From a virus, in IMG/VR virus record IMGVR_UViG_3300031760_000286, positions 1 through 35,076 of that record: a DNA stretch of 35,076 nucleotides. One strand, given 5' to 3'. The notes beneath the pieces are model-generated. The model was not told where the DNA came from and searched no databases. It saw nothing but the letters and a program-made list of their open reading frames with translations. How positions within the stretch are numbered: position 1 is the first letter of the stretch; each line of letters opens with the position of its first letter. A program made the position numbers and the translations under genes. Of the stretch, positions 5,034-35,076 are shown piece after piece.

Positions 5034-5215
5034 AGACACCCTCCTTCCTTGACGATGGCACGCACTTGGGCGGCTTTCAAGCCGTAGATGTCGCCGAGGA
5101 AAGCATATATCTTCATCTTCTGTCCTCCGCGCTTGCGGTGTGCAAGGTAGTCCCTGCATATCTTCGCGTTACGTGCCATACGCTCTGCCTTCAGTGGTGT
5201 CACCAGCGGTCTCAT
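5030..5215 (-). CDS. Small Mor-like HTH regulator (weak call)
   Basis: 61 aa. RNAKICRDYLAHRKRGG..IYAFLGDIYGLKAAQVRAIVKE resembles Mor or sigma-region-4 type HTHs. ATGA overlaps occur at both ends. Confidence 0.35.
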   Translation of the reverse strand: MRPLVTPLKAERMARNAKICRDYLAHRKRGGQKMKIYAFLGDIYGLKAAQVRAIVKEGGCL

Positions 5216-5514
5216 ACTTCTTCAGGCATTTTGATACGTGCCATCTCGGCGTTGATGGCTGCTAACTCGCCCAGCAGGGCGTCTTTCTTGGCGATGAAGG
5301 CGTCATGACGGAGCCGGAGCTCGGCGTCACGTTCCTTTGTCAAGTCCGCCATGTGCTGGCGGCACACCGCCAGCTCCTTCTCGGTGTCGTGGGCGATGGT
5401 GCGGCGGTCGCACTCGTGCGCGTACTTGAGCATGCGTATCTCGCTCTCCTTCGCCGCCTTCTTCGTGATGAGGTCGGCATACTTCTCGTTGATGTTGTTG
5501 TTGGTTGTTTCCAT
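5212..5514 (-). CDS. Hypothetical coiled-coil protein (100 aa)
   Basis: ORF with charged heptad-like sequence, in operon context. Confidence 0.45.
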   Translation of the reverse strand: METTNNNINEKYADLITKKAAKESEIRMLKYAHECDRRTIAHDTEKELAVCRQHMADLTKERDAELRLRHDAFIAKKDALLGELAAINAEMARIKMPEEV

Positions 5515-5549
5515 GTCTTTTTGTTTTTTTTGGGTTAATAATTGATATT

Positions 5550-5762
5550 TTACATGTTCTGGTGTTCTTTCATGTCGGCGACCACCAGCTTGAGCTCAAG
5601 GTATATGTCGCCGATGGTCTTCGTGGGCTCCGGCTTCGGCACCCTCAACACCTCTTCCATGAGGTCGAAGAACTGCCATATGTCGTAGTTCCCTTTGGCG
5701 TAGCCTTCGGCGATGTCACGCGTCAGCTGCTCGCGCTCGGCGAAGGTCATGTTACTGCTCAT
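5550..5762 (-). CDS. Hypothetical protein (70 aa)
   Basis: ORF in operon context. Confidence 0.4.
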   Translation of the reverse strand: MSSNMTFAEREQLTRDIAEGYAKGNYDIWQFFDLMEEVLRVPKPEPTKTIGDIYLELKLVVADMKEHQNM

Positions 5763-6036
5763 CGGTCACCTCCTTCCATTCGCCGTTCTCCACGGTGTAC
5801 CATGTGTCGGCCTTGAGGGTGACGCCGTCCACGACGCCGGCCTTCCACTCTTTGATGTTGTAGGAGCCGTAATCTTCTATGGCCACCACCAGCAGGGCGC
5901 CATACTTACCGCGCACCCTCGCCTCATCATTGCGAGCCACCGCCACACCATGACGACCGACCGAAGCAGAGCCTCGGCTCGTGGCAACGCAATAGTCGCC
6001 ACCAGTTGCGACATGGTAATCTGTTGTAATGTTCAT
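5752..6036 (-). CDS. Hypothetical protein (94 aa)
   Basis: ORF in operon context, with an A-rich leader carrying the ATTAACC motif upstream. Confidence 0.45.
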   Translation of the reverse strand: MNITTDYHVATGGDYCVATSRGSASVGRHGVAVARNDEARVRGKYGALLVVAIEDYGSYNIKEWKAGVVDGVTLKADTWYTVENGEWKEVTDEQ

Positions 6037-6054
6037 AATCTTGTGTTTTATAGG

Positions 6055-6222
6055 TTAATAGATATTCGTGTTCGTCTCGTCGTACCCCTGCTGTCGGGCG
6101 TACTCCAGCGCCGCCGTGAGGCTGTCGTGGTTCGTGAAGAGCAGGATGTTGCCTATATGCTCCTCGCACCTCCATGTGGCGCCCCACGGGCTGGCGAAAA
6201 TCATGATGAACTTGAGGCGCAT
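6055..6222 (-). CDS. Small hypothetical protein (55 aa), below the ORF-track cutoff
   Basis: Hand translation gives MRLKFIMIFASPWGATWRCEEHIGNILLFTNHDSLTAALEYARQQGYDETNTNIY. It fills the gap between the stop at 6224 and the next gene exactly. Confidence 0.35.
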   Translation of the reverse strand: MRLKFIMIFASPWGATWRCEEHIGNILLFTNHDSLTAALEYARQQGYDETNTNIY

Positions 6223-6223
6223 G

Positions 6224-6472
6224 TCAGTATACTCTTAAGGTTTTCATCCAACGTCCGGCACAGCAGGTGTAGCGGTCGAGCCCCACATACTGGCGTGCCA
6301 GCATCTTCACTTCGTTGTCCGTCATCTTCGGGCAGCGCACCTCGCGGAACAGCTTGGCGTCGCCCTCGCCGATGAACTTGCGCAGGCGCACCCACTCGTA
6401 GCGCCCTTTCAGCAGGTCGGTGTAGGCCTCAAGCACCACACCGTCGTCTTCCCATGTCAGTTGGAACATCAT
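6224..6472 (-). CDS. Hypothetical protein (82 aa)
   Basis: ORF in operon context. Confidence 0.45.
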   Translation of the reverse strand: MMFQLTWEDDGVVLEAYTDLLKGRYEWVRLRKFIGEGDAKLFREVRCPKMTDNEVKMLARQYVGLDRYTCCAGRWMKTLRVY

Positions 6473-6487
6473 CGCCGTCGCCCTCCT

Positions 6488-6616
6488 TTATTTGTATATC
6501 TCGGTCTTAAAGCCGCGCTTCTTACACAGCACTATCACGCCGTTGGGGCGCACTCTCCAATACTGCCAGTCGCGGAAGTGCGGGCAGCGGTGTACGGTCA
6601 GCTTCATCTTTTCCAT
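6488..6616 (-). CDS. Small hypothetical protein (42 aa), below the ORF-track cutoff
   Basis: Hand translation gives MEKMKLTVHRCPHFRDWQYWRVRPNGVIVLCKKRGFKTEIYK. It fills an otherwise empty 160-nt gap. Confidence 0.3.
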   Translation of the reverse strand: MEKMKLTVHRCPHFRDWQYWRVRPNGVIVLCKKRGFKTEIYK

Positions 6617-6632
6617 GTCGTGGCGGTGTTGG

Positions 6633-6896
6633 TTATTTAAACATTATATACTGACCGCACTTGCCGCCGCGAGGGGCGTCGTTGCCGTATTCATAGGCAA
6701 TGCCTGCCGCATCCAGCAGGCGGCGGAAGTCATCCGTGTAGTCAAGGCACTTTGTGAAGCGACCTCTGCCCGAGGTGTGGCAGGTGCGCACCTTCTCGTT
6801 GGTGGCGAAGTCCTTTTTGGCGAGCGTCTGGTAAGCATAGCTGCTCTTGCTCATGTTGATAATCTCTGCAGCTTTTTCAATCTTTATGTTGTTCAT
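6633..6896 (-). CDS. Hypothetical protein (87 aa)
   Basis: ORF in operon context. Confidence 0.45.
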   Translation of the reverse strand: MNNIKIEKAAEIINMSKSSYAYQTLAKKDFATNEKVRTCHTSGRGRFTKCLDYTDDFRRLLDAAGIAYEYGNDAPRGGKCGQYIMFK

Positions 6897-6913
6897 GTCG
6901 TTGTCGGTTTTGT

Positions 6914-6933
6914 GGGGAGGGTCGCCCCTCCCC
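6914..6933 (-). other. GC-rich hairpin (8-bp stem, 4-nt loop) between the first and second early genes
   Basis: GGGGAGGG(6914-6921) tcgc CCCTCCCC(6926-6933). On the minus strand the loop is GCGA, a GNRA tetraloop. No U-tract follows on the minus strand. Confidence 0.5.
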
Positions 6934-6945
6934 GATGGTTGGTTT

Positions 6946-7197
6946 TTAAAGGAAGACTACCTCGTCATTGCTGATACCCATGTCAAACATTTTGGCCTTG
7001 ATATAATTCAAAGCGTGCAGCACTCCTATCTGCCCCTTTTCCGCACTTCCAATGTGCCTCAATATTGCATTGTCTCTCATTCTAACAAGCTGCCAGCCGT
7101 AGCGTTCGTCATCGCAGGGCATCCATCCACAGACGTAAGGAGTCTCGATGTGCATCTCCAATGCGGTAGTGTAAAGGTCTTTTTGTTTCGTTTCCAT
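6946..7197 (-). CDS. First gene of the leftward early operon, hypothetical (83 aa; occupies the Cro position)
   Basis: I prefer the ATG at 7195-7197 (METKQKDLYTT..) to the TTG start at 7224 used by the ORF track. Confidence 0.45.
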   Translation of the reverse strand: METKQKDLYTTALEMHIETPYVCGWMPCDDERYGWQLVRMRDNAILRHIGSAEKGQIGVLHALNYIKAKMFDMGISNDEVVFL

Positions 7198-7211
7198 GAT
7201 TACAATTTTTT

Positions 7212-7250
7212 TTTGTTGTTTCAATTTTTTGTTTGTTGTTTCAATTTTTT
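7212..7250. repeat. Tandem direct repeat TTTGTTGTTTCAATTTTTT x2 (period 20) in the switch region; candidate operator
   Basis: 7212-7230 and 7232-7250 are identical over 19 nt. Confidence 0.6.
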
Positions 7251-7260
7251 TGTATTTTTG
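7228..7260 (+). promoter_or_regulatory. Candidate Bacteroidota-type promoter for the repressor/integrase operon
   Basis: TTTG (7228-7231), 21 nt, then TATTTTTG (7253-7260), which matches the -33 TTTG / -7 TAnnTTTG consensus. The region is AT-rich, so a chance match is possible. Confidence 0.35.
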
Positions 7261-7276
7261 CCTTCAAAAGCAGTTG

Positions 7277-7307
7277 CAAAAATACTATAAATTTTCTAAC
7301 TACCAAA
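7277..7307 (-). promoter_or_regulatory. Candidate Bacteroidota-type promoter for the leftward early (lytic) operon
   Basis: The minus strand reads TTTG (7307-7304), 19 nt, then TATTTTTG (7284-7277). Confidence 0.4.
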
Positions 7308-7363: not shown

Positions 7364-7732
7364 ATGAATGAAAAATTTTTTCTTGACAGCGCGAAATTGG
7401 CAGAAATTTTGCGTTTTTACAGGCTAAAAATCGTAGAATTAAACCAAAAAATTGGCGCTAAAAACCGCGAACTATACCAAATATCGGCAGGCAACCAGCA
7501 GGAGTTCTCGCGTGACATGCTCAAGGCCATAGCAAAGCATTGCCCCGAGGTCTCGCCCTACTGGCTCATCACGGGTGAAGGCTCCATGCTGGCAGGCACG
7601 GCGGCACATCACAACGCCGTGGCCTCCGACCACTCCACGGCCACCGTGACGGAGAACGGCGGCGGCATCATAGAAAGCCAGCAGGCCACTATCGACCGCC
7701 TCTCGCGCATCATTGAAAAGCTGACACGATGA
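7364..7732 (+). CDS. CI-type phage repressor (Phage_CI_repr-like HTH)
   Basis: The N-terminal HTH ends in the family-typical SPYWLITGEGSM motif. The gene is divergent from the early operon and coupled to int by an ATGA overlap. Confidence 0.7.
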   Translation: MNEKFFLDSAKLAEILRFYRLKIVELNQKIGAKNRELYQISAGNQQEFSRDMLKAIAKHCPEVSPYWLITGEGSMLAGTAAHHNAVASDHSTATVTENGGGIIESQQATIDRLSRIIEKLTR

Positions 7733-8943
7733 CGACACGCTACTCCGTAACCTTCGCCCTGCTGCCGCGACCGCTACGCGACGGCACACACAGCGTCGCC
7801 CTCACCGTCACTTGGTGCCGCCAACGCTACCGCCACACCCTCGCCGTATCATGCCCTCCCGACAGCTGGGATGCAGCACGCCAGCTGGCACGCCCTCGCG
7901 GCACCTTCCGCGACGTCGCCGCCGTCAACAGCGCCGTCCTCGACGCACGCCAGCAGGTGGACGGCCTCTTCGCCCGCCTCGCCGCCGAAGGACGCACACC
8001 CACACCCCACGACCTCGACGGCCTCTTCACGGCTACTAAACGGCTACAAGACCGCATGACGGTGGCCGACGCCATCGCCGCCTTCATGGAAGAGCAACAG
8101 CGCGAACGCGGATGGCAACCTGCCACGGCCGCAAAATTCGGCATGCTGCACCGCGAACTCACCGCCAGCGGCACTACCTACGCCGACGAGATAGACGACG
8201 CAGCACGCGCGAGATTTATAGACCTCCACACCGCACACGGCATCCGCAACACGACCCTCGCTAAGAAGGTGGCCATCCTCAACTGGTTCTTGCGCTGGAG
8301 CAACGGCCGCGGCTACACCTCCTGCCCCGTCAAGCCCCTGCACCTCCGCACCGTGCCGCGAGCCGTCACATATCTTGAGTGGGATGAGCTCATGCACCTC
8401 TACACCTTCAACTACGGCGACCACGCCGCCCTCTCCCACGTCCGCGACATCTTCTGCCTCTGCGCCTTCACAGGGCTGCGCTACTCCGACGCGGCGGCTC
8501 TACGCTGGCACGACGTCACCGACGACAGCCTCCGCGTCGTCACGCAGAAGACCGCCGACCCTCTCGACATACCACTAAATAAATACGCGCGCGCGATAAT
8601 AGATAAGTACCGAGGCACGCAAGGCCGCGTCCTGCATGCGCCCACCAACCAAGCCGCCAACCGACTGCTCAAGGACGCCGCCCTTCTGGCACAGCTCGAC
8701 CGCACCGTGCGGCAGGTGTACTTCCGAGGCAACGAACGCCACGAAGAGGCGCTGCTGCTCTTCGAGGACTTCACCACCCACTACGCACGACGCACCTTCG
8801 TCGTTCATGCCCTCCGGCTCGGCATACCATCCGAAATTATCACGCGCTTTACAGGCCACAACAGCCTCCAAACCATGAAGCCCTACGTCGCCATCGTCGA
8901 CGAACTCAAGGCCACCGCCATGCATCGCTTCGATGAGGTGTAG
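7729..8943 (+). CDS. int: Tyrosine recombinase / phage integrase (Bacteroidota type)
   Basis: 404 aa. The C-terminal catalytic region reads HYARRTFVVHALRLGIPSEIITRFTGHNSLQTMKPYV (HxxR..GH..Y). A SAM-like core-binding region is present (IAAFMEEQQRERGWQPATAAKF). Confidence 0.85.
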   Translation: MTTRYSVTFALLPRPLRDGTHSVALTVTWCRQRYRHTLAVSCPPDSWDAARQLARPRGTFRDVAAVNSAVLDARQQVDGLFARLAAEGRTPTPHDLDGLFTATKRLQDRMTVADAIAAFMEEQQRERGWQPATAAKFGMLHRELTASGTTYADEIDDAARARFIDLHTAHGIRNTTLAKKVAILNWFLRWSNGRGYTSCPVKPLHLRTVPRAVTYLEWDELMHLYTFNYGDHAALSHVRDIFCLCAFTGLRYSDAAALRWHDVTDDSLRVVTQKTADPLDIPLNKYARAIIDKYRGTQGRVLHAPTNQAANRLLKDAALLAQLDRTVRQVYFRGNERHEEALLLFEDFTTHYARRTFVVHALRLGIPSEIITRFTGHNSLQTMKPYVAIVDELKATAMHRFDEV

Positions 8944-8972: not shown

Positions 8973-9011
8973 CAAACGGCAACCGATTGAATATCAGTCG
9001 CCGTTTGTTGT
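8969..9011 (+). terminator. 12-bp stem hairpin immediately after int (terminator or attP-associated inverted repeat)
   Basis: 8969-8980 ACAACAAACGGC pairs with 9000-9011 GCCGTTTGTTGT across a 19-nt loop. No clear U-tract. Confidence 0.4.
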
Positions 9012-9122
9012 CCCACCAGGACTTAAGTGTTTTGTTGCGTGGTGTTACGCAATGTTGCAGACATGCTGACAATCAGCAGTAAAATGTGCTGCCGTCGCCG
9101 ACTTTGTTTCAAAACGTTGCTA

Positions 9123-9521
9123 TTATCTATAAAAAAGTTGCCAAAATTTTGCCAACAAGACAGCCAGCAGCACCACCAGCGCCGCCACTCCCGACCACAT
9201 GAGAGCCTTCTGCCACCATGACAGCGGCTTGGCGACCTCCACGGTCTCGGTAACGGTAGTGACTACAGGCTTCTCGATATAGCGGTAGGCAGTGTCTATC
9301 TTGGTCACAATTTTTGACTTGGTCACTTCATTTGTGACAAAGATGGTGTCGCCCTTCACCTCGACGGTGTGCCAGCGGTCGATGTAGGTGCTGTCGTGGA
9401 GAAAAATTTTTTGCCTGATGGTGTCATGCACCTCGACGGGCACCTGCTCGATGACGCGGACGGTACGACAGGAGCAACACAAGACCGAGGCCAGCAAGAC
9501 GATAAAGAACACTCTCGTCAT
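9123..9521 (-). CDS. Unimolecular-spanin-like protein (N-terminal lipoprotein-type signal plus C-terminal TM helix)
   Basis: 132 aa. It starts MTRVFFIVLLASVLCCSC and ends in the TM segment WSGVAALVVLLAVLLAKFW. Its start overlaps the stop of the DUF5675 gene. Confidence 0.5.
   Translation of the reverse strand: MTRVFFIVLLASVLCCSCRTVRVIEQVPVEVHDTIRQKIFLHDSTYIDRWHTVEVKGDTIFVTNEVTKSKIVTKIDTAYRYIEKPVVTTVTETVEVAKPLSWWQKALMWSGVAALVVLLAVLLAKFWQLFYR
9138..9158 (+). repeat. 21-bp direct repeat copy 2 (TTGCCAAAATTTTGCCAACAA)
   Basis: See 8952-8972. This copy overlaps the 3' end of the 9123..9521 gene. Confidence 0.5.
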
Positions 9522-9988
9522 ACCACCTCCACCTCTACCTTCTCGCCGCGATGCTCGGCAGCCATGACACGCGCCACGATGGCGTCCATGTAGATGCGGT
9601 TGCCGTCAAGCCTCCCGACGATGTTGTTCTTTCCGAGCAGGATGCAGCCCTCGCTGTGGTCTGCCGTCATGCCGTTGTGCATGAGTATGCCGGTGAAGCC
9701 AGGCACGCGGAGCAGCCGCACCACGTAGGAGTTAAACTTTGGCCAATAGTACGAGCACGCGTCATAGCGCCCCGTCGGTATGGCCGTCTTGCTCGGCACC
9801 TTGTCGATAGAGGTGTTGTCATGCCTCAACCAATAGCCCTTATTGCCGCCTGTCGAGACGAAGGGCATCACCTGCGTGGCTCCTCGGTCGGTGTCCTCGA
9901 GGCTGTCGCAAAAGGCTTTGCCGTCGATGCTCACTTTGCCGACGGTGTAGGCGTTCTTTCGCGCCTTGCGTTCTACCTTAATCAGCAT
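9518..9988 (-). CDS. DUF5675-like protein (YkuD-like H..SxGC motif); candidate endolysin
   Basis: YTVGKVSIDGKAFCDSLEDTDRG..TAIPTGRY..VPGFTGILMHNGMTADHSEGCILLG matches my memory of the Bacteroidota DUF5675 family. It lies upstream of the spanin-like gene. Confidence 0.5.
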   Translation of the reverse strand: MLIKVERKARKNAYTVGKVSIDGKAFCDSLEDTDRGATQVMPFVSTGGNKGYWLRHDNTSIDKVPSKTAIPTGRYDACSYYWPKFNSYVVRLLRVPGFTGILMHNGMTADHSEGCILLGKNNIVGRLDGNRIYMDAIVARVMAAEHRGEKVEVEVV

Positions 9989-10241
9989 CGCCCAGCAGTC
10001 TTTCGTACTCCTTCCAGTCGTAGCTCTCGCTGTCGTGGTCGGCCATGATGTCGGCCTTCACCTCTTCGATGGTGGGCTTGCGGGTGTAGTCGACGCACTT
10101 GTACGTGTAGCCCATGCCGGCGCCTTCGCACTCTTCGGACGGCTCTTCGTGGCAGTCCCACACGATGCACCAGTGCTGCCTCTTTTCGTCGGTGCAGCGC
10201 ACCACGGGCAGCTCGTCAGTACCTGAATGAATAATGTACAT
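9978..10241 (-). CDS. Hypothetical acidic Cys-rich protein (87 aa) directly downstream of the RT
   Basis: ORF located 13 nt after the RT stop. Confidence 0.4.
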   Translation of the reverse strand: MYIIHSGTDELPVVRCTDEKRQHWCIVWDCHEEPSEECEGAGMGYTYKCVDYTRKPTIEEVKADIMADHDSESYDWKEYERLLGDAD

Positions 10242-10254
10242 AATTTGTTGATTT

Positions 10255-11559
10255 TTAAGTGAAACAATATTTTTTCTTTCCTTCTCCGAAGGTCTTTCTC
10301 CGTATCACCGTGCGAAAAGGTATCGCACCGGCCTCGCGCGTCTTGTCGAGTATCTGCTTCATCTCTTCGCTGTTGGTGAAAAACTTAAACTCTTTGGCAT
10401 TCTCGTCTTCTACAAGCACGAGATATCTGTCGCCGCCCTCCTTCGTGGTAACGCCCGTCTCGTAGTCCTTGACGATGATACGCGTATTCTGTAAGTCGTC
10501 GAGCCTCACCGTGGGGCACTCGTAACGCTTTTTGCCGTCGGCAGCGACATAAGATATGCCGAGCTCACTAAAATCTTTCATATTGTAGCCTGTTAGTGTC
10601 TTGAATAGATGTTTTGCGTGGGCGTGCTTCGCCCATCCATAGAACGAGCCCAAGAGCTCTCGTTTCCTCCGGCGGCTCTTGACATCACGCCAGTGGCGTA
10701 TGAAGCGCTGCTTTATGTGCTTGCGCAGCGCTATACGGCCGTCACCGTGGATGACATAGCCGAGGAAGTCCAGCGGCCTGCTGTCGATGCAGAATATCTG
10801 CTCGTTGCCTTTTATGTCAAGCCCTGCCTCCGCAGCATGGCTGTGGATAGCCTCCTTTGCAGCCGTGAGGTCTTGGGGCGAGTGACCGCCGACAATGATG
10901 TCGTCGCAGTATCGCCAGTAGTACTTACAGCCGAGGCCGTCCTTTATGGCATGGTCTACATATTCGCTCAAATACAGGTTGCCGAAAGTCTGACTTGCTC
11001 GCAGGCCGATGCTGATGCCTTGCGGCAGCATGCGCACGCAGTCCTCAAGTATGGCCACCACCTGCGGCTCTCGGAACTTGCGCCGGATGATGGCCGTCAG
11101 CTTTTCTTGGTCGATACTCTGATAGTACTTGCGGATGTCGCACTTGTAGAACCACATCAACTCGCGGTCTGTCTGCATGGCCTTCTGCATGCGCTTGAGC
11201 AGGTAGAGGCCACCGCGACCTTTGATGCTCGACGCCGTGTCCGTGATGAAGGACGGCAGCAGCCGCTTCTCTATTTCGTTCATGAGGCTGTTGAGGGCTA
11301 TACGGTCGCGCAGCGGTATCGCCTGTATCGTGCGCTCTTTGCCACGTTCTATGATATTAAACTGATGATAGTGGCTGATGCGGAACGTGCCCTCGCGGAG
11401 CTCCTGCTGGAGCTGTGCTATCACCTCCTCGCGGTGGGCGAGCAGCTTCTGTCCCGTCGGGCATGTCTTTCTCATGGTGCCGCGCAGCACATAGTCGAAG
11501 CTCTCGTACAAGTTGCTGTACGAGGATGCCTGCTCTATTATGCCGCCGTAGCTTTTCAT
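10255..11559 (-). CDS. DGR reverse transcriptase with a C-terminal extension of about 110 aa
   Basis: 434 aa. It carries the DGR-diagnostic motif-4 IGxxxSQ (SIGLRASQTFGNLYL) and a catalytic YCDD (YWRYCDDIIV). The TR lies 175 nt upstream. Confidence 0.9.
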   Translation of the reverse strand: MKSYGGIIEQASSYSNLYESFDYVLRGTMRKTCPTGQKLLAHREEVIAQLQQELREGTFRISHYHQFNIIERGKERTIQAIPLRDRIALNSLMNEIEKRLLPSFITDTASSIKGRGGLYLLKRMQKAMQTDRELMWFYKCDIRKYYQSIDQEKLTAIIRRKFREPQVVAILEDCVRMLPQGISIGLRASQTFGNLYLSEYVDHAIKDGLGCKYYWRYCDDIIVGGHSPQDLTAAKEAIHSHAAEAGLDIKGNEQIFCIDSRPLDFLGYVIHGDGRIALRKHIKQRFIRHWRDVKSRRRKRELLGSFYGWAKHAHAKHLFKTLTGYNMKDFSELGISYVAADGKKRYECPTVRLDDLQNTRIIVKDYETGVTTKEGGDRYLVLVEDENAKEFKFFTNSEEMKQILDKTREAGAIPFRTVIRRKTFGEGKKKYCFT

Positions 11560-11734
11560 CAGCCTTCATTCTGTGGGGCTTGCCGTTCTCGCTCGCGCTA
11601 CTGACCGCGCCACCCCGTTGTCCGTTATTTTTCACCTCCGCTTGTGCGGTGTGGTGAGGCTCCGCTCCCTCGGCGTGGCTCGACAATCGCGTTGCCTATG
11701 CCTTGCCGATATATCTCTGGACATTCTCATGATT

Positions 11735-11850
11735 GCGAGGCGCGACCCGTTATTCGCATTCGTATTCGAGGAGTCGTTATTCGCATTCGCGTACGCCACT
11801 CCGCCTTGCGAGTTCGCATTGTTGTACGAGCGCAGGACAACACGCCCACT
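11735..11850 (-). repeat. DGR template repeat (TR) core, 116 nt; homology may continue with an indel to about 11868
   Basis: It aligns without gaps to 11941-12056. Its translation is Asn-rich (YNNANSQGGVAYANANNDSSNTNANNGS) from AAY codons. It contains an internal 15-nt duplication (11748-11762 = 11775-11789). Confidence 0.9.
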
Positions 11851-11873
11851 TCGGGAGCTTCCGCCCATATCTT

Positions 11874-13070
11874 TTATCCTATCGCTGTCGCCGCGAGGAA
11901 CGCGGCGACGCTCTCCGCTTTAACGCAGTGGCCGCGGAAGGCGAGGCGCGACCCGTAACTCGCATACGTCGTCGAGGAGCCGCTACCCGCATCCGCGCAC
12001 GCCACCCCGCCTTGCGAGTACGCACTGGCGCACGAGCGCAGGACAACACGCCCACTGGAACCCGTCATATAGATGCCGTCGCAGAAGCCGTGATGGTCGT
12101 CGCCTCCTGTCTGCGTCGGGTAGGGTATGAGGTCGAGGTTGGCACCGACGACCATGCGCTTGGGGTAGACCCATGTGTTGGGCGTCACCTGCCCCTGCAC
12201 CGTGCGTGTCAAGCCGCTGTTACGGTCGGCAATAGTCCAGTCGTAACCGTTGACGTCAACGTTGTCGACCCACTCGTACTTATTTCCCCACCAATTATCG
12301 AGGCCGAAGAAGTTGATGCTCGACTGATTGCCGTTGACGCTGTTGGTGTCTGTCATGCCGAGGGCGTTGGTGAGGCCAGTGTTCTTGGCATTCGTGGCCG
12401 TACCACTTCCGCAGATGGCCTGCGCGTTGGTGTTGCCGTAGATGGCATAGAAGAGGAAGGCCATGATGTTCTGATGTTCCCAGCGCACGAGGCTGAAGTT
12501 CGCCGAGCGGTTGCGTGCCTTAATCTTGAAGTTGGCCTGCGACACGCTGGCGAGGCTCGCCACGCCGCTGATGCTGCGAAGGAAGCCTGCGCCGCTGTTG
12601 GCGGTCTCCAGCGTCGAGCCGTCGAAAGCCGTCGTCGAGGCAGCCTCATAGGCGCCGATGATGTCGTGCTCCGACCACTCAAGCCAGCTCTCGTCGACCT
12701 TGTAGTCGGCGAAGCCTATCTTCCAAACACCTGCCGACACCTCCACGGCCTGCGTGTAGAGCGTAGGCCGCTGCATGAAGACGTCGCCCTGCGTGCCGTC
12801 GAGCGTGGCCGCCGTGCCGTCGTAGAACTTCGTGCTGTCGTGGTCGTCGAGCTGGCACAGCAGCATCACGCCGTCGGCGACATACTTGCCGAGATAGCGG
12901 TGCGAGTTGGCGCGGATGCGGCGTATCAGCTTGCCGTTGACATCGCCGCCAATCATGGTGGCAGGGTCGCTCACCGTCATGTCAAGCATGATGAAGTTGA
13001 CATGGCTCTTGTCGTGGATGCCGGAGGCTCCTTTGCGGCGGCCTCCGCCCATAGGTATTATCAAGCTCAT
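11874..13070 (-). CDS. DGR target protein: tail-fibre / receptor-binding-like protein with a C-type-lectin (FGE-like) C-terminal fold carrying the VR
   Basis: 398 aa. NWWGNKYEWV and the C-terminal ..GRVVLRSCASAYSQGGVACADAGSGSSTTYASYGSRLAFRG are typical of DGR CLec-fold targets. It lies last in the tail gene block. Confidence 0.8.
   Translation of the reverse strand: MSLIIPMGGGRRKGASGIHDKSHVNFIMLDMTVSDPATMIGGDVNGKLIRRIRANSHRYLGKYVADGVMLLCQLDDHDSTKFYDGTAATLDGTQGDVFMQRPTLYTQAVEVSAGVWKIGFADYKVDESWLEWSEHDIIGAYEAASTTAFDGSTLETANSGAGFLRSISGVASLASVSQANFKIKARNRSANFSLVRWEHQNIMAFLFYAIYGNTNAQAICGSGTATNAKNTGLTNALGMTDTNSVNGNQSSINFFGLDNWWGNKYEWVDNVDVNGYDWTIADRNSGLTRTVQGQVTPNTWVYPKRMVVGANLDLIPYPTQTGGDDHHGFCDGIYMTGSSGRVVLRSCASAYSQGGVACADAGSGSSTTYASYGSRLAFRGHCVKAESVAAFLAATAIG
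11887..11909 (-). other. Perfect 9-bp GC-rich hairpin/cruciform 31 nt downstream of the VR
   Basis: GTCGCCGCG (11887-11895), aggaa, CGCGGCGAC (11901-11909). It lies inside the last 12 codons of the target gene. Confidence 0.7.
11941..12056 (-). repeat. DGR variable repeat (VR), 116 nt
   Basis: It shows 17 mismatches to the TR. Sixteen fall where the TR has A on the coding (minus) strand, so 16 of 28 TR adenines are substituted. One mismatch is at a non-adenine (TR 11764). Confidence 0.9.
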
Positions 13071-13074
13071 AATA

Positions 13075-15792
13075 TTATGATGTTAGGTTGTTGATATTGT
13101 TGATTTGTCGAAGTTTGCACCTGCATGTGGTGTTGTGCTCTCCCCAGCTGCGTATCTCGGTGACGAGATAGAGCAGGTGGTCGATGATGACGAGCGGCAC
13201 GCGCCGCACCTTGTCAAAGATGTCACGCGGCAGGTCGATATTCACCTCTATCGTCTTGTTCTGCACGTCGTATAGCTCCTCGACGTAGCCCTGCCACGCC
13301 CTCTCATAGAGATACTGCGTCGCCACGTCGGGGGTGCCGGTATAGGCCTCCCTCACGGGGGCGAAGAGCAGCGACTGCCCCGAAGCCGCCACCGTGGCAA
13401 AGACAGGGATGACGGCCAGCGGCATATCGCTGGCGCTGTCGCCATGCCAGCAGAATGTGTTGCGCAGCACTTCGTCTATGCTGTCGTCGGAGACATACAC
13501 GCTGCTGCGCCAGCCGTCGAGCAGAGGCTCTGCCGCCGTTCTGTTGGCGCGGCGGTAGTAGAAATTGCCGCTGATGTTCGCGGCCTTGTCGTCCTTGACG
13601 TTGGCGATGGCCGGCAGGCTCTCGACCTGCGTCGTGGTGTCCGACGCCATGATGGCTCTCACGGGTGCCGCTGTGAGGCTCGCCACCGCCGACGCCTTGC
13701 TGCCGTAGTTGGTGATGAGCTTCTTCTCTCCCTTGCCGACGGCGTTCTGCGTGACGATACGCTTGCTGCCGAAGGGTATGCCGTGCCGTTCTTCGTAGCC
13801 TTCAGTGAAGGTCGTGTCAAGGCCTTCGAGGTTGAAGAGGACGCTGCGGTGCTCCCACGACAGAGGCGTCATGGTGACGGCCTGCGCCACCTGCGGCGTG
13901 ATGTCGGCAGGGTTCGCGGCCATGAAGTCCGCAAAGGCATCCTTCGAGCGCTTGACGGTGACGGTCTCGGCCACATCGTCGACCTCCCACACGAGATGGT
14001 GCAGCTTGGCATACTGCAGCAGGACGGCGAAGGGTGCTATGTCGCCGAACAGAGCCTCAAGGCTCACGGCACGGCCGCTGCGCATGTTCTCCGCACGGCG
14101 CACGGTGACGTTGGATATGCCGACCGACAGCGTCGGCGCTGTGCTGACATTATACCAATAATTGGAAGACACCACATTGGAACCTGCCAGCGCAAAGGGC
14201 GTCACGTCTTCAGTCGCTTCAGGCGTATAGAACGAGGCCGTCGCTTCCAGCTGTATGTCGGTGGCCGTCGTCGGTATCAGCGTCAGCTCGTCATGGAACG
14301 CGGCCAGCGTCATGTCGCCCTGCACACCTACGGCGATGGGCGAGTAACCACACTCGCGTATCTCATAGGCGCGGCGCATGGCCTTGCCAACGGCCTGCGA
14401 GACATAGTTGCCGAAGACGGTGTTACGGTCAAGGAACCAGTCTTTGCCGCTATTCTCGGTGGTGTTGAAGATGATATAGTGTTTCTCGTTGTAGAAGCCG
14501 ACGCCTGCGCCCGTGGCCTTGACTCGTATATGCAGGGGCGAGACGTTATTCATGCCTATGTGCCAGTCGGATATGTCATGTTGCGGCAGCATGGAGATGA
14601 CGCTTTCGAGGTCGTAGCCGAAGGTCACCCTCTCCCCTGCCTCCACATGTACGGTGTCAGTGGTGGCTGTTGCCACAACGTCGCCTATGCCGGACACGAT
14701 GATAGGATGCTGCGACACTTCGGCACTCTCTATTGGCATGACGGTGGCCGTCTGCCCTCCCGACAGGGCGCTCTCGGCGATGGTCTTCTCGTCTATCTTC
14801 TGCTGCGGCAGCATGTAGACCATGCCCTTGAGCTCGTCGTTGGTAGCGTTGAACCAACGCTGGTCGAGTATCATGTCGTAGCCCGTGACGGTGCGGCACT
14901 CCCTCGCTATGAGCTGCCACAAGGCCGACACGTAGATATATGGCTGCTGGTAGTAGCTGCGGTATTCGCCCAGCTGCTGCTCGTATACCGTGCCCTCTAC
15001 CTTGTAACTGTCGGCGGCGCTGCCGTCGAGCCATGTCCGCTGCGACAGCACAGGCACGATGCCAGCCTGTGCGGCTCTCTCGCCGTCGATGACGGTCTTG
15101 TTGAGCCACTTGTCGCCGCTGAAGTCGGGGTACGCTCCCTGCAGGGTAGGCGCGAAGCCTATGAGCGAGACGATGTGCGCCGCCGTCTCGTAGGCAGCCG
15201 CAAGGCCATAGAGCGCCGCGAGGTCGTCATGCTGATATATCTCCGTGAGGTCGAAGAGTGGATTGTCTACCATCCATGACGTGCGCACGAGGGCGGCGTT
15301 GAGGGCGTTCTTCGCGTTCATGTCGAAGCCGTTGCGCCACGCATAGCGCACCACGTCGAAGAGTTTGACATAGCTGTCGTCTTCGGTCTTCTTCGCCGCG
15401 CTCCAGCCTGCGTTGAGAAGGCGCGAGAATATGGCGCTCTGCGAGCCTGTCAGCGACAGATAGTATGCGTCTTTGTCTACCTTTGTGAGAACGGCGTCGC
15501 CAGTACTGACGACCATCCCCGAAGACATGGCAAGGTACTGCATCTTCTCGGCAGGATTGAAGCCGCTGGCCGTAACCACGCTGTCAAGGCGGTAAATATT
15601 GCTGAAGAGCTTGTCATTGTCGGCACAGCGCGGCAACTTGACCGACACGCTGCGCTCGCTGACGTAGTTTGTCGGGTTGTCGAGGTTGTCGAAGGTGAAG
15701 GTGAAGCGCACGTCCTCTTTGTCGTCGAGGACGACCTCTCGCCACACCTGCTTCGTCATGCCATAGGGTATCTTCAAATACAGCCTGCTCAT
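13075..15792 (-). CDS. Large virion/tail structural protein (905 aa)
   Basis: Long ORF in the tail block, coupled upstream by an ATGA overlap. I recognise no family. Confidence 0.55.
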   Translation of the reverse strand: MSRLYLKIPYGMTKQVWREVVLDDKEDVRFTFTFDNLDNPTNYVSERSVSVKLPRCADNDKLFSNIYRLDSVVTASGFNPAEKMQYLAMSSGMVVSTGDAVLTKVDKDAYYLSLTGSQSAIFSRLLNAGWSAAKKTEDDSYVKLFDVVRYAWRNGFDMNAKNALNAALVRTSWMVDNPLFDLTEIYQHDDLAALYGLAAAYETAAHIVSLIGFAPTLQGAYPDFSGDKWLNKTVIDGERAAQAGIVPVLSQRTWLDGSAADSYKVEGTVYEQQLGEYRSYYQQPYIYVSALWQLIARECRTVTGYDMILDQRWFNATNDELKGMVYMLPQQKIDEKTIAESALSGGQTATVMPIESAEVSQHPIIVSGIGDVVATATTDTVHVEAGERVTFGYDLESVISMLPQHDISDWHIGMNNVSPLHIRVKATGAGVGFYNEKHYIIFNTTENSGKDWFLDRNTVFGNYVSQAVGKAMRRAYEIRECGYSPIAVGVQGDMTLAAFHDELTLIPTTATDIQLEATASFYTPEATEDVTPFALAGSNVVSSNYWYNVSTAPTLSVGISNVTVRRAENMRSGRAVSLEALFGDIAPFAVLLQYAKLHHLVWEVDDVAETVTVKRSKDAFADFMAANPADITPQVAQAVTMTPLSWEHRSVLFNLEGLDTTFTEGYEERHGIPFGSKRIVTQNAVGKGEKKLITNYGSKASAVASLTAAPVRAIMASDTTTQVESLPAIANVKDDKAANISGNFYYRRANRTAAEPLLDGWRSSVYVSDDSIDEVLRNTFCWHGDSASDMPLAVIPVFATVAASGQSLLFAPVREAYTGTPDVATQYLYERAWQGYVEELYDVQNKTIEVNIDLPRDIFDKVRRVPLVIIDHLLYLVTEIRSWGEHNTTCRCKLRQINNINNLTS

Positions 15793-22413: not shown

Positions 22414-23148
22414 TTAAAAGTTTTCTATTTGGAAGTCCTGCCACACGGCGCGGTTGGCATACATGTCGTTGGCGATTTTATGCACGAGCAGGGTGATGTT
22501 TCTGACGTCAAGGCTGGCGAAGACATTGTCGCCTCCGAGTTCGGGGGGCGTCATAGCTTCGCATCGCACCAAACCGAGGCTGGTGACAGCAAAGGCACCG
22601 TCTTCAATGCGGTGTACCCATGACGGTATGTGCACCTCCTTGAGTTCTATGTTGGCGAAGGCAGCTTGGGGAATGGTTGTGGGGTCTTTGAAGACGACGG
22701 CCACGGTGTGCGTGCCGGCGGTGAAGTGTATTTGCTGTCCTGTGTCGTAGGCCTTGCCGTTGTCTACCTTTACCATCGCCACATCGCCGTCGGCGTTGTC
22801 GTTGATGATGTCGTAGTTGCCTTCGCTGCCGAAGCTGTAGGTTGCCAGCACGGCCATGCCGACGGCGAGAGAGCTGATGCCGAAGGCGGCATCTACGTCC
22901 ACGAGTTGGGAGTTGGGTATGGCGTCGAGCTTCGTCTTGTCGGCGGCGCTCATGGCACCTGCCACGCTCTGCGTGGCGTTGGGGATGGTGAAGTACGGCA
23001 GGTCGTTGAAGGCCGCAAGGCCTGTGCCTATCTTCAGCCGCTGCGGCGTGGTGTCGGTGACGATGGCAAACTCACCGTAGGCCAGCACGGGGTTGTTCGT
23101 CGCCCACCGTGCGGCACTGTCTCTACGTATCTTGATGGTCGTTGACAT
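22414..23148 (-). CDS. Fibre-like protein: Mtd_N-type N-terminal domain fused to BspA-type leucine-rich repeats
   Basis: IKIRRDSAARWATNNPVLAYGEFAIVTDT..LKIGTGLAAFNDLPY is the tail-fibre / Mtd N-terminal motif. The C-terminal IPQAAFANIELKEVHIPSWVHRIEDGAFA..TPPELGGDNVF..AVWQDF is LRR_5-like. Confidence 0.6.
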   Translation of the reverse strand: MSTTIKIRRDSAARWATNNPVLAYGEFAIVTDTTPQRLKIGTGLAAFNDLPYFTIPNATQSVAGAMSAADKTKLDAIPNSQLVDVDAAFGISSLAVGMAVLATYSFGSEGNYDIINDNADGDVAMVKVDNGKAYDTGQQIHFTAGTHTVAVVFKDPTTIPQAAFANIELKEVHIPSWVHRIEDGAFAVTSLGLVRCEAMTPPELGGDNVFASLDVRNITLLVHKIANDMYANRAVWQDFQIENF

Positions 23149-34091: not shown

Positions 34092-35076
34092 TTAAAATAA
34101 TTTCGTTTGTGTGCCCGCAGCGGGTTCGGTGTCGACGAAGAGGTTGCGGAAGAGGTAATGGAGGCACGCCACGACGATGCTGTTGCCTGCGAGTTTGGCG
34201 TGCTGTGTGCGTGGGATGGGAGCGGCGAGGAGGGTGTCGATGTCGGGTTCGGACACGTCCATCAGCCGGTAGAGCTCGCGCTCGGTCAGGCGGCGGATGC
34301 GGATGCCTTGTTCTGTCACCATGGGTCTTTGTCCACCACCCATCCCACAGGCGGCATTAACACATGGCGAGACACCGTCCACAGAACCGACATAGGCATT
34401 TTTTTGCATACTACCTATCACCATATCCTTATTGGCTTGGGGGATGGGCTCCATTTCGCGGTCAAGTCCGGCCATCAGTTTCTCCACCTGCTCATCCTTC
34501 AGATAGTACCTCTCCTCCACGTTTTGTTCGAGTACGTCTTTTAGGCGGCGTTCCAGGCGGAAGGGCTTGGGGAAGTAGTAGGCGCGGGGGCAGTCGAGGA
34601 TGCTGACCATAAAGATGCGGAGGCGGTTCTGCGGCACGCCGTAGTCCTTGGCGTTCATCAGCTGCTGGAAGTTGGTGTAGCCGTAGCCGTTCAGCCGCAC
34701 CTGCCAGCGGTTGAAGAGGTCGATGAACTTGTCGCTCACCAGTCCGCCGACGTTCTCGAAGACGAGGTGGCGGGGGCGCAGTTCGCGGACGGCACGCTCG
34801 GTCTCCCACAGTAGGCCGGAGCGGGTGCCGCTGCCCTCTTCGCCGCCGCGCTGGAGTCCTGCCGCGGAGAAGTCCTGACAGGGGGAGGAGTAGGTGAGGA
34901 GGTCGATGGGCTGGGGGTGGCGGTGGTGCCACTCGGCCCAGTCGACGCGGCTCACGTCGCCGAGGTTGCGTCCGCTCCATTGGGGGAAGAGGGCGTTGTG
35001 GGCGGTGATGGCGTGGCGGTCTATCTCGCACCAGGCGGCGAGGTCGTAGGGCAGGCCGAGGCGGTTCAGCGCGAGG
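34092..35076 (-). CDS. C5 cytosine-specific DNA methyltransferase (body; the N-terminus continues at 133..1 through the circular junction)
   Basis: Motifs are SPCQDFS (motif IV, PCQ), FENVGGL (motif VI, ENV), QNRLRIF (motif VIII) and LAGNSIVV (motif X). The full circular gene is about 342 codons. Confidence 0.85.
   Translation of the reverse strand, partial: LALNRLGLPYDLAAWCEIDRHAITAHNALFPQWSGRNLGDVSRVDWAEWHHRHPQPIDLLTYSSPCQDFSAAGLQRGGEEGSGTRSGLLWETERAVRELRPRHLVFENVGGLVSDKFIDLFNRWQVRLNGYGYTNFQQLMNAKDYGVPQNRLRIFMVSILDCPRAYYFPKPFRLERRLKDVLEQNVEERYYLKDEQVEKLMAGLDREMEPIPQANKDMVIGSMQKNAYVGSVDGVSPCVNAACGMGGGQRPMVTEQGIRIRRLTERELYRLMDVSEPDIDTLLAAPIPRTQHAKLAGNSIVVACLHYLFRNLFVDTEPAAGTQTKLF
34988..35076. 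repeat. Terminal overlap copy 2, identical to 1..89
   Basis: Direct comparison found 89/89 identical bases. Confidence 0.95.

Follow-up and report, generated by a model that had tools for sequence, protein, structure and literature searches.

An Avd-less diversity-generating retroelement, related to that of Hankyphage, targets a predicted tail-fibre tip protein in a temperate phage

Organization of the cassette

The window analysed here is the whole 35,076-nt stretch of IMG/VR virus record IMGVR_UViG_3300031760_000286. It contains phage genes for a terminase, a portal, a protease and an integrase, and its ends share an 89-nt terminal overlap. On the minus strand, a target gene is followed by a template repeat (TR), a structured spacer RNA and a reverse transcriptase (RT) gene, and a variable repeat (VR) lies within the target gene. 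The original prediction read this locus as a complete diversity-generating retroelement (DGR) in a temperate, probably Bacteroidota, phage. A tyrosine integrase gene (7729–8943) supports the temperate lifestyle, and relatives located in Bacteroidales genomes, MAGs and phages support the Bacteroidota assignment, at the level of these relatives rather than of the host of the present phage (59% GC) itself.

A repeat search detected one 116-nt direct repeat, composed of the TR (11735–11850, minus strand) and the VR (11941–12056, minus strand), which align without gaps at an offset of 206 and with 85% identity. The base-by-base tally proposed in the original prediction returned 17 mismatches over the 116 positions, at exactly the 17 coordinates that had been predicted. 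Read on the minus strand, which is the transcribed one, 16 of them replace an A of the TR (by G in 11 cases, T in three and C in two), and the sole exception is a T-to-G difference at 11764. An AAT codon ends at this position, and its second A is mutated as well (AAT to ACG). By template base, 16 of the 28 adenines are changed, as compared to one of the 88 other positions (C 0/31, G 0/36, T 1/21), which reproduces the predicted counts. Given 28 adenines in 116 nt, the binomial probability that at least 16 of 17 mismatches fall on adenines is 1.7e-9, and Fisher's test for the same bias gives 2.6e-11. When each A of the TR was replaced by N, the resulting pattern matched only the TR and VR sites in the window, with 0 matches expected from 100 shuffles.

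The TR begins 23 nt past the stop codon of the target gene and is non-coding, while the VR is read in the frame of the target gene and supplies residues 339–376 plus 2 nt. Twenty-six of the 28 TR adenines occupy codon positions 1 or 2, and ten codons of the TR are AAY. No stop codon can be reached in the VR by adenine substitution, and ~3e15 peptide variants are possible. The peptides and ORF coordinates quoted in the original prediction were correct on re-checking.

The RT gene (10255–11559, minus strand) encodes 434 aa. The reported motifs IGLRASQ (residues 184–190; 10990–11010) and YCDD (residues 217–220; 10900–10911) are present, and align as IGxxxSQ and YxDD with the motifs of the Bordetella bRT (8ub7_A), the best solved relative of the protein (E 1.3e-21; 80 bits vs 41 bits for the next). 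The protein also matches Pfam RVT_1 (2.5e-11) and phrog_1423 (1e-93), and it shares 45% identity across all 434 aa with the RT of the Hankyphage DGR. The NCBIfam models for group II, Drt3a and retron RTs all remained sub-threshold (63 vs 300, 61 vs 200 and 40 vs 235, respectively), and the PADLOC profiles for generic RT, UG17 and Drt3a scored 74–93 bits. Judged by its best matches and motifs, the enzyme is thus DGR-like, as had been proposed.

[quoted passage not shown] The Rfam search of positions 9000–14000 returned no other family, including any intron or retron RNA. RT-3 RNA occupies the equivalent position in three relatives (L003, L004 and L006; 44–48 bits), in a Parabacteroides distasonis locus (L019; 62.6 bits) and in Hankyphage (146.6 bits). 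Few segments of the locus have diverged as little between relatives as the spacer (1.1–2.3%). In BPP-1, RT-10 RNA occupies this position (PMC5737381). Weinberg et al. 2017 published RT-3 without an assigned role and guessed that more of the RT motifs are DGR spacer RNAs. The location of RT-3 exactly between the TR and a DGR RT, both here and in Hankyphage, supports this guess.

At its 3′ end, the VR bears the GC-rich 14-mer GGGTCGCGCCTCGC (11941–11954, minus strand), and an identical copy ends the TR (11735–11748). Compared with the IMH description in PMC5758913, this boundary is IMH-like: the TR/VR homology ends within ~5 nt after the 14-mer, and no mismatch lies 3′ of position 11751. Since the IMH and IMH* cores are identical, flanking sequence must tell the TR from the VR. 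A GC-rich inverted repeat with a 9-bp stem, GTCGCCGCG-TTCCT-CGCGGCGAC (11887–11909, minus strand), lies 31 nt after the VR, within the 3′ end of the target gene. It overlaps Ala codons, and this coding sequence alone could produce it. The DNA fold of 11880–11915, which contains the inverted repeat, has an energy of -15.4 kcal/mol (z = -5.3), and none of 200 shuffles was as good. The hairpin is kept in relatives, and that of L009, at the equivalent site, has one stem pair changed on both sides. No equivalent hairpin was found downstream of the TR. A GC-rich inverted repeat after the VR, but not the TR, occurs in 34% of DGRs (Wu et al., PMC5758913), and hairpins of the BPP-1 type have 7–10 bp stems located 4–34 bp past the VR and 4-nt GRNA loops (PMC3240598), whereas the loop here has 5 nt (TTCCT). 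By analogy, the inverted repeat is a candidate hairpin or cruciform for target recognition.

The RT continues into a C-terminal module (10258–10581, minus strand; residues 327–434), which starts at an internal Met (MKDFSELG) and matches phrog_19665 (4e-19). In the AF2 model (pLDDT 84), it has an OB-fold-like order, b1-b2-b3-helix-b4-b5, with weak Foldseek matches to PrgE, Teb1 OB-A, hSSB and Pf3 SSB. Homologs of phrog_19665 are encoded by separate 103–109 aa genes directly after RTs of 308–344 aa in L022, L023 and L024, and at least one of the elements with such a separate gene (L022) is a DGR. The RT gene is directly followed by an acidic ORF (9978–10241, minus strand; 87 aa, pI 4.5), whose product is short and homologous to the N-terminal region of phrog_19239 (1.5e-4). 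This family scored 1e-69 against p161 of Hankyphage, 8e-62 against a 167-aa protein of L023 and 2e-7 against an 82-aa protein of L009, and BLASTP aligned the 87-aa ORF with the Hankyphage protein over 26 aa (3e-5). The acidic ORF is also kept in RT-less relatives, and whether it belongs to the DGR cassette is uncertain.

Among 145 stop-to-stop segments of the window (70–230 aa, six frames, chosen by size and position), none matched PF05635 or another four-helix-bundle family, and hence no Avd, in BPP-1-type DGRs (Architecture B, avd-TR-RT) a basic four-helix-bundle protein of about 110–130 aa, was detected. The target stop codon and the TR are only 23 nt apart, and nothing in the window corresponds to the small ORFs of Hankyphage. 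DGRs without Avd form a known class, as Architecture A accounts for 29% of DGRs and Lineage 3 is without avd (PMC5758913). The element can be called complete in the sense of such an Avd-less architecture only, and the BPP-1 mechanism is not transferable to it one-to-one.

The target protein

The target gene (11874–13070, minus strand) is a 398-aa ORF, for which gene callers place the start at 13052 (MGGGRR, 392 aa) instead of 13070. The gene sits between the virion and lysis modules, and the first residues of its product are, by eye, neither hydrophobic nor signal-peptide-like. The protein is predicted to be a tail-fibre tip module, with a beta domain at the N-terminus and a domain of the CLec/FGE type at the C-terminus. 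The AF2 model (pLDDT 92.6) retrieved TaqVP (9e-7), Mtd (~1e-3), TvpA, FGE and EgtB from the PDB by Foldseek, which bears out the CLec/FGE-like fold of the original prediction. In this model, the VR segment falls in the CLec/FGE-fold domain, as in Mtd, TaqVP and TvpA.

Profile searches matched the target to phrog_5302, annotated 'tail protein' (1e-30), and to phrog_14959 (5e-55). In BFVD, its model matched C-terminal modules in proteins annotated 'tail collar fibre' or 'tail fibre' (TMq up to 0.87). Many annotated tail-fibre and tail-collar proteins, among them those of crAss-like phages, have the whole 380-residue module at their C-terminus, and homologs bear N-terminal extensions of the phage-tail-repeat or collagen type. 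The phrog_5302 and BFVD matches support the tail-fibre-like role that had been proposed. The claim that the target is the last gene of the tail block stands by position only, as the two proteins encoded upstream of it (905 and 391 aa) had no family matches in profile searches.

A real DGR could also act on an adhesin that the virion displays towards another ligand (mucus glycans, for example), or on a protein of the lysogen, rather than on a receptor-binding fibre. Benler et al. proposed mucus adherence for the CLec target of Hankyphage (PMC6199706), and the absence of family matches for the neighbouring 905-aa and 391-aa proteins is in line with such a role. However, the 'tail protein' match, the recurrence of the module at the end of tail-fibre and tail-collar proteins, the tail-repeat or collagen extensions of its homologs, the position of the gene and the character of its N-terminus all argue against it, and we regard this alternative as unlikely.

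Variation among relatives

The closely related L003 is 97.7% identical overall. Its TR shows no difference in 116 positions, while its VR differs at 22 of 116 (19%), as compared to ~2% elsewhere, and 18 of these 22 differences lie at TR-A positions. Each RT-bearing relative carries a different VR. The adenine bias recurs in eight other loci, and when nine TR/VR pairs were pooled, 143 of 152 mismatches fell on TR adenines. Among 30 close relatives, the entropy of the 16 adenine-templated residues is 2.22 bits, whereas the remaining VR residues have 0.16 bits and the protein outside the VR 0.20 bits (Mann-Whitney, adenine-templated residues vs rest of the protein, p = 4e-13). The programmed hypervariation that had been predicted is thus seen between genomes, where the TR is fixed while the VR varies at adenine-templated codons.

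An assembly from a second sample (L002) has an identical VR, and some relatives have lost the RT by deletion (L005 and L008) or carry it split (L004), which shows that the element is dispensable and decays. These observations, together with the one non-adenine TR/VR difference, would fit a fossil DGR, an intact-looking cassette that no longer mobilises and whose VR is frozen from past retrohoming. However, the identity of L002 is 100% over 8.3 kb, so that it represents the same strain and carries little information on activity. Moreover, the RT ORF is full length with intact catalytic motifs, conservation is perfect for the TR, all 28 adenines included, and extends to the RT-3 RNA, and the VR differs in every RT-bearing relative, all of which makes a fossil very improbable. 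The notion that the locus is no DGR, but an ordinary duplication diverged by point mutation next to an RT from a group II intron, a retron or a DRT/Abi defence system, draws on the weak sub-threshold group II, Drt3a and retron matches and the PADLOC RT, UG17 and Drt3a matches, and is effectively refuted by the adenine bias (p = 1.7e-9) repeated in eight other loci, by NCBIfam scores far under their cut-offs, by RT-3 as the only Rfam family in positions 9000–14000 and by the lead of ~40 bits of bRT as the best solved relative.

Relation to known systems and proposed function

The closest known cassette is the p00 DGR of the Bacteroides phage Hankyphage (BK010646), described by Benler 2018 (PMC6199706), the activity of which has been demonstrated experimentally (PMC12135933). 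Both elements have the order target-TR-RT, a TR and a VR of 116 nt, an RT of 434 aa whose similarity extends end to end, including the phrog_19665 module, RT-3 RNA in the TR-RT spacer (47.5 bits here vs 146.6 bits there) and a VR in the C-terminal CLec domain of a tail protein. In both, the protein encoded next to the RT falls in or resembles phrog_19239; it is an acidic protein of 161 aa in Hankyphage and cut to 87 aa here, without the DUF4376 part. The gap between target and TR measures 195 nt and holds a 64-aa ORF in Hankyphage, but 23 nt without any ORF here, and the Hankyphage target exceeds 2000 aa, whereas ours is a 398-aa stand-alone tip module. The phage backbones are unrelated: Hankyphage is Mu-like, transposable and 43 kb long, while the present phage is integrase-based, ~35 kb and 59% GC, and the two have no megablast match.

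With BPP-1 (mtd-avd-TR-brt), the element shares adenine-specific transfer from TR to VR, a tail-fibre protein with the VR in its C-terminal CLec tip (Mtd being a Foldseek match of the target), a homologous RT (E 1.3e-21), GC-rich ends of TR and VR and a GC-rich hairpin past the VR. It differs in that Avd is present in BPP-1 and was not detected here, the spacer RNA is RT-10 there and RT-3 here, the hairpin loop is not of the 4-nt GRNA type, the IMH and IMH* cores are identical, and the RT carries a ~108-aa extra C-terminal module, as compared to the 328 aa of bRT. For the target, the closest likeness is to TaqVP of Thermus aquaticus (PDB 5vf4) and to the Bacteroides 'domain group 2' prophage variable proteins (bioRxiv 10.1101/2024.11.15.621889); TaqVP is the best structural match, at 12–14% identity and TMq 0.37–0.42 over the whole chain. 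TaqVP comes from a prophage, lacks any other recognisable domain and was proposed to be the receptor-binding part of a tail fibre.

Within the classification of Wu et al. 2018, the TR-RT core with an upstream target and without avd resembles that of Architecture A1 (TR-RT, no accessory gene) and of Architecture E1/Lineage 3a (acidic 'CH1'). Architecture E1 has a small acidic protein beside the RT, as here, CH1 measuring 160–169 aa vs 87 aa in the window, and about 20% of DGR RTs are extended at the C-terminus by a part of unknown function (PMC5758913), as is the RT of the window. From size, pI and position, we infer that CH1 corresponds to phrog_19239, and the Hankyphage-like lineage, in which an RT-phrog_19665 fusion is followed by phrog_19239, is probably Lineage 3a/Architecture E1. 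Of the features of this lineage, the window contains the phrog_19665 module and RT-3, and for phrog_19239 only an 87-aa homolog that looks like an N-terminal fragment (1.5e-4). Phage and Bacteroides DGRs of such a type have already been described (PMC6199706, PMC12135933, bioRxiv 10.1101/2024.11.15.621889), and the present element adds a clean new case to a known kind of system, Avd-less and related to the Hankyphage element, rather than a new kind.

Taken together, the locus is very likely a functional-type Avd-less DGR of a ~35-kb temperate phage, in which a tail-fibre tip protein is varied on its presumed receptor-binding face. By analogy with BPP-1 and Hankyphage, the TR and the spacer would be transcribed, probably with the late/tail operon, and the RT would bind the spacer RNA, prime cDNA synthesis from it and copy the TR with errors at adenines only. 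Replacement of the VR by the cDNA would then end, on the 3′ side, in the GC-rich 14-mer common to both repeats, and the hairpin 31 nt past the VR would assist and would mark the VR, not the TR, as the recipient. In this way, ~16 residues at the tail-fibre tip would be rewritten. As ten AAY and seven other adenine-containing codons allow ~3e15 peptides without any stop, receptor specificity and host range can shift.

The OB-fold-like phrog_19665 module, possibly with the acidic protein, may take over the nucleic-acid handling that falls to Avd in BPP-1. We consider it possible, but on balance doubtful, that this module and the RT-3 spacer RNA together are the functional replacement for Avd, and that a DGR RNP which is independent of Avd and distinct in mechanism is common in gut Bacteroidales phages. 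If so, the window would offer a natural example in compact form (target, TR, RT-3 and RT-OB) fit for reconstitution, the module would help to explain Avd-independent retrohoming, and RNA and one protein would constitute a minimal two-part system, usable for targeted mutagenesis tools.

With one target, a TR and a VR of 116 nt and no detectable Avd, the element is a compact and well-resolved case, for which near-identical relatives with different VRs, and relatives without the RT, provide natural comparison material. It links Avd-less architectures, the unexplained C-terminal extension of DGR RTs and the orphan Rfam motif RT-3, each of which had so far been described on its own. Because the 398-aa target corresponds to the tip module of many gut phage tail fibres, those of crAss-like phages included, VR-dependent host range is testable in this family.

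Template and variable repeats and their variation

The single long direct repeat of the window consists of the template repeat (TR, 11735-11850) and the variable repeat (VR, 11941-12056) of the diversity-generating retroelement (DGR). The copies, 116 nt each at an offset of 206 nt, align without gaps and are 85% identical. A base-by-base tally gave 17 mismatches, 16 of them at A, reproducing exactly the list of the original prediction. Read on the minus (coding) strand, the TR adenine is replaced in the VR by G in 11 of these 16 cases, by T in 3 and by C in 2. The remaining one, T to G at 11764, lies at the third position of an AAT codon that is also altered at its second A (AAT to ACG). Counted by TR base, 16/28 A, 0/31 C, 0/36 G and 1/21 T are changed, and the probability of at least 16 of 17 mismatches falling on adenines by chance is 1.7e-9. 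The template pattern with N at every A matches only the TR and the VR (0 matches expected); the window therefore holds one target. The VR lies in frame within the 398-aa ORF at 11874-13070, where it codes residues 339-376, and the TR starts 23 nt past the stop codon of this ORF. Nearly all TR adenines (26/28) occupy codon position 1 or 2, with ten AAY codons. Substitutions at TR adenines can never yield a stop codon and give access to about 3e15 peptides.

The 27 nt directly before the TR (11852-11878) are 78% alike to 13036-13062, the start-codon context of the target (GATAA..ATGGGCGGA.GC), and the TR pseudo-ORF resulting from this likeness begins with MGGS, as compared to MGGG in the target. 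The likeness may be a relic of the origin of the TR from a truncated gene copy, or it may be due to chance, which would give about 0.5 matches of this kind in 4.5 kb.

Near relatives were found in a protein collection and their contigs were then fetched. A megablast of the locus against GenBank phages returned no close relative, and IMG/VR scans with the target peptides and with the spacer motif returned no relative. One contig (L002) is 100% identical over 8.3 kb with an unchanged VR, and is thus the same strain. In L003, a contig from a sister sample that is 97.7% identical overall, the TR is invariant (0/116 differences), as are the 90 nt between the VR end and the TR start, whereas the VR differs at 22/116 positions (19%, versus 1-3% in the flanking genes), 18 of the 22 being TR-adenine positions. 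The TR/VR mismatches within the other near relatives fall on adenines in 17/17 cases (L006, L007), 16/19 (L004) and 14/15 (L009, 73% identical in DNA). In more distant relatives, taken from genome assemblies (Prevotella MAG, Bacteroidaceae MAG, Parabacteroides distasonis isolate, Eubacteriales-binned contig), the mismatches number 16-18, with just one non-adenine, in L015. Pooled over nine loci, 143/152 mismatches are at TR adenines.

The same pattern was seen in the protein. Among 30 relatives with a target at least 79% identical (at least 84% in all but one), the 16 adenine-templated residues have a mean column entropy of 2.22 bits, as compared to 0.16 bits for the other 22 VR residues and 0.20 bits for the rest of the protein (adenine-templated residues versus rest, Mann-Whitney p = 4e-13). 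Variation concentrated at adenine-templated positions, for which the original prediction had proposed a test, is thereby observed at the level of genomes rather than reads, in the VR against the TR among relatives. Residues 347 and 358 have adenine-templated Tyr codons (VR TAC to TGC) and are Cys in most of the 30 relatives, residue 358 having an entropy of 0.47 bits. Particular residues, perhaps forming a disulfide, may thus be under selection at positions open to randomisation by the DGR.

Several relatives depart from the regular arrangement. In a Paludibacteraceae contig, a distant relative (L011), the VR equals the TR over 93 nt (6906-6998 and 7123-7215; 0 mismatches, 25 adenines), and is either unmutated or freshly reset. 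Two relatives, L005 and L008, have lost the RT, the L005 deletion corresponding to about 10428-11635 of the window. The L005 TR survives as a remnant (5207-5322; window 11735-11850) with no more than 16 adenines. It differs from the window TR at 16 positions, 13 of them adenines, a pattern that adenine mutagenesis of the template, or its conversion from a VR, would leave, whether before or after the RT loss. L004, a relative at 93% identity, has its RT divided over two ORFs of 275 aa and 108 aa (5494-6797); a frameshift, decay or faulty assembly could account for this. Its TR and VR still differ by 16 adenine and 3 non-adenine mismatches.

Reverse transcriptase, spacer RNA and accessory candidates

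The RT (10255-11559, minus strand) is a 434-aa protein matching Pfam RVT_1. Its best solved relative is bRT of Bordetella phage BPP-1 (8ub7; E 1.3e-21, 80 bits), the next solved RT scoring 41 bits, and IGLRASQ and RYCDD of the window RT align on IGSLTSQ and RYMDD of bRT. A defence or other RT system was rejected, as scores for the NCBIfam group II intron, Drt3a and retron models (63, 61 and 40 bits) are far under the cut-offs (300, 200 and 235), and PADLOC returned only generic RT, UG17 and Drt3a at 74-93 bits. Best hits and motifs thus bear out the assignment to the DGR type. Among annotated phages, Hankyphage (Bacteroides phage p00) has the closest relative, an RT that is 45% identical across all 434 residues. 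More than 2900 homologs were found; the best 120 are nearly all about 434 aa long, and the few of these that are named come from Bacteroidales, Prevotella and Massilibacteroides.

Few parts of the locus diverge less between relatives than the 175-nt TR-RT spacer (1.1-2.3%). This spacer matches the full model of the structured RNA Rfam RF03068, 'RT-3 RNA', at 47.5 bits (gathering score 40.5). RT-3 RNA occupies the equivalent position in L003, L004, L006, the P. distasonis locus (L019, 62.6 bits) and Hankyphage (146.6 bits), scores below the gathering threshold in L009, which is divergent, and is missing from L005 and L008, the relatives without an RT. The RNAs RT-1 to RT-19 adjoin RT genes, RT-10 lying between the TR and brt of BPP-1, and Weinberg et al. 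guessed that the other RT motifs serve other DGRs (PMC5737381). The window locus and Hankyphage bear out this guess for RT-3. Two further RNAs were noted: RT-17 RNA in L024 (284-359), directly upstream of and overlapping the start of an RT that has a standalone phrog_19665 gene, and the Rfam c4-2 antisense RNA in the phage of L009 (17937-18016).

A Pfam scan of 145 stop-to-stop segments of 70-230 aa, selected by size and position from the six frames of the window, found no family of the Avd type, the accessory protein of BPP-1. The gap between target and TR is only 23 nt, and the small Hankyphage ORFs have no counterpart in the window. A 78-aa ORF across the TR (11632-11868) was discarded as an Avd candidate, being the TR in the reading frame of the target and reported by no gene caller. 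The absence of Avd is a known situation: 29% of DGRs have no accessory gene (Architecture A), and RT Lineage 3 is entirely without avd (Wu et al., PMC5758913).

Directly after the RT lies ORF87 (9978-10241, minus strand), which encodes 87 acidic residues; its acidity (pI 4.5) ruled it out as Avd. It matched nothing among PDB sequences, and its N-terminal part matches phrog_19239 weakly (E 1.5e-4). Full members of this family are a 161-aa acidic protein after the Hankyphage RT (L010, 6302-6787; pI 5.0, DUF4376; 1e-69) and a 167-aa protein after the standalone module described below in L023 (1660-2163; 8e-62), and L009 carries a related ORF at 12725-12973. The family is probably the accessory gene CH1 of Wu et al. 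2018 (160-169 aa, pI 4.7; PMC5758913), matched by descriptions of size, charge and position. The RT-less relatives keep the ORF87 counterpart, and this phrog_19239-like ORF is at most a candidate component of the DGR.

The C-terminal extension of the RT, residues 327-434 (10258-10581, minus strand), matches phrog_19665, whose 105-position profile has no assigned function; unexplained extensions of this kind occur on about 20% of DGR RTs (Wu et al., PMC5758913). The predicted model (pLDDT 84) has the strand order b1-b2-b3-helix-b4-b5, the classical order of the OB-fold. Its only matches among solved structures, all weak, are to the OB-fold ssDNA binders PrgE, Teb1 OB-A, human SSB and Pf3 SSB (best Foldseek E 3e-3, TM about 0.3). 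The profile matched nothing among PDB sequences, and the weakly suggested OB-like fold is therefore a reading of predicted topology and these Foldseek matches. In a search of 1.84 billion representative proteins, the module was found fused at the end of RTs of about 410-580 aa, as it is in the window and Hankyphage. The search also returned many standalone proteins of 103-109 aa, starting at a Met internal in the window RT (MKDFSELG). In all three contexts examined (L022, 4001-4312; L023, 1331-1660; L024, 1338-1652), the standalone gene directly follows a 308-344 aa RT; of these, L022 is clearly a DGR, having two VRs and, directly before the RT, a TR rich in adenine. Since the module is fused in some RTs and a separate adjoining gene in others, it is, judging from these sequences, a separable partner of these RTs. 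The OB-like module, perhaps with the acidic protein, might stand in for Avd, a tentative hypothesis that we lean somewhat against.

The target protein and the phage

The target had no match in Pfam or NCBIfam, and nothing meaningful by sequence in the PDB, so that only the fold comparison was informative there. Matches were obtained in PHROG, to phrog_14959 (5e-55) and to phrog_5302, 'tail protein' (1e-30). An AlphaFold2 model built with 64 homologs (pLDDT 92.6, pTM 0.91) has the CLec fold. All of its best solved matches are variable proteins of DGRs or relatives by fold: TaqVP (9e-7), five Mtd variants (about 1e-3), TvpA, formylglycine-generating enzyme and EgtB. In predicted viral structures, the target module corresponds over its whole length to the C-terminal ends of annotated tail collar fibre and tail fibre proteins (TMq up to 0.87), crAss-like phage proteins included, and more distant homologs bear N-terminal extensions of phage-tail-repeat (PF12789) or collagen type. 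Fold and homologs, together with the PHROG matches, thus support describing the target as the lectin-fold tip of a tail-fibre-like protein. Its placement as the last gene of the tail block fits by position, and it is position that carries this claim, because the upstream 905-aa and 391-aa proteins have no family matches.

The window is essentially a whole phage genome. Positions 1-89 are identical to 34988-35076, and the contig carrying the window sequence is 35,104 nt long; the identical ends make the window a circularly closed or terminally redundant assembly, with a genome length of about 34,987 bp. Its encoded proteins include terminase, a portal-like protein and a protease. Onward, the order is the unannotated 391-aa and 905-aa proteins, the DGR, a DUF5675 protein, a small protein and, on the opposite strand, a tyrosine integrase. 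The DUF5675 protein and the small protein, both ends of which look hydrophobic, constitute a putative lysis module. A 244-aa Mtd_N-type protein (22414-23148, minus strand; PF18454; PHROG tail-fibre/tail-spike N-termini, E about 1e-9) lies among the head and portal genes, distant from the DGR target and with no VR inside. The only paired divergent Bacteroidetes-type -7 motifs (TATTTTTG, both strands) are at 7253-7284, intergenic and upstream of a 122-aa gene and the integrase operon, likely a lysogeny-control region. About 59% of the bases are G or C. Bacteroidales genomes and phages harbour relatives of the target and RT.

Target-site features, proposed mechanism and known systems

The TR and VR both end in the GC-rich 14-mer GGGTCGCGCCTCGC, after which the homology stops. 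At 11887-11909, 31 nt beyond the VR and within the target ORF, a GC stem of 9 perfect base pairs encloses a 5-nt loop (DNA fold of 11880-11915, -15.4 kcal/mol, z = -5.3), and no equivalent stem follows the TR. The stem is kept in relatives, and the L009 hairpin at the equivalent place has one stem pair changed on both sides. As compared to the hairpin/cruciform of BPP-1-type targets, with stems of 7-10 bp, 4-34 bp from the VR, and a 4-nt GRNA loop (PMC3240598), the window hairpin fits in stem length and distance but differs in its 5-nt loop.

By analogy with BPP-1 (PMC6182149; bioRxiv 10.1101/2023.10.23.563531) and Hankyphage, the TR-spacer RNA would form an RNP with the RT. Synthesis of cDNA would be primed from the spacer, with misincorporation at adenines, and the cDNA would replace the VR as far as the GC-rich boundary, with guidance from the hairpin downstream. 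RNAduplex found no conserved BPP-1-like TR:spacer priming duplex in the window, L009, Hankyphage and L019; we claim no conserved priming site, because the best duplex fell in different spacer regions across these four loci. The Bacteroidetes promoter motif TAnnTTTG is absent near the TR, and so we only infer that the TR is co-transcribed with the tail operon.

In the Hankyphage record, a VR and a TR, each of 116 nt, are annotated upstream of the RT, and this DGR has been shown to mutagenise the VR of the tail fibre both in culture and in virions (PMC12135933). The element called in the original prediction is real and was correctly interpreted: it is a gut-phage, Avd-less, Hankyphage-related DGR that acts on a TaqVP-like tail-fibre tip. 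Such elements have already been catalogued by hundreds (PMC6199706; bioRxiv 10.1101/2024.11.15.621889), and what the present locus adds is the RT-3 assignment, the separable OB-like module and relatives in which the RT has been lost naturally.
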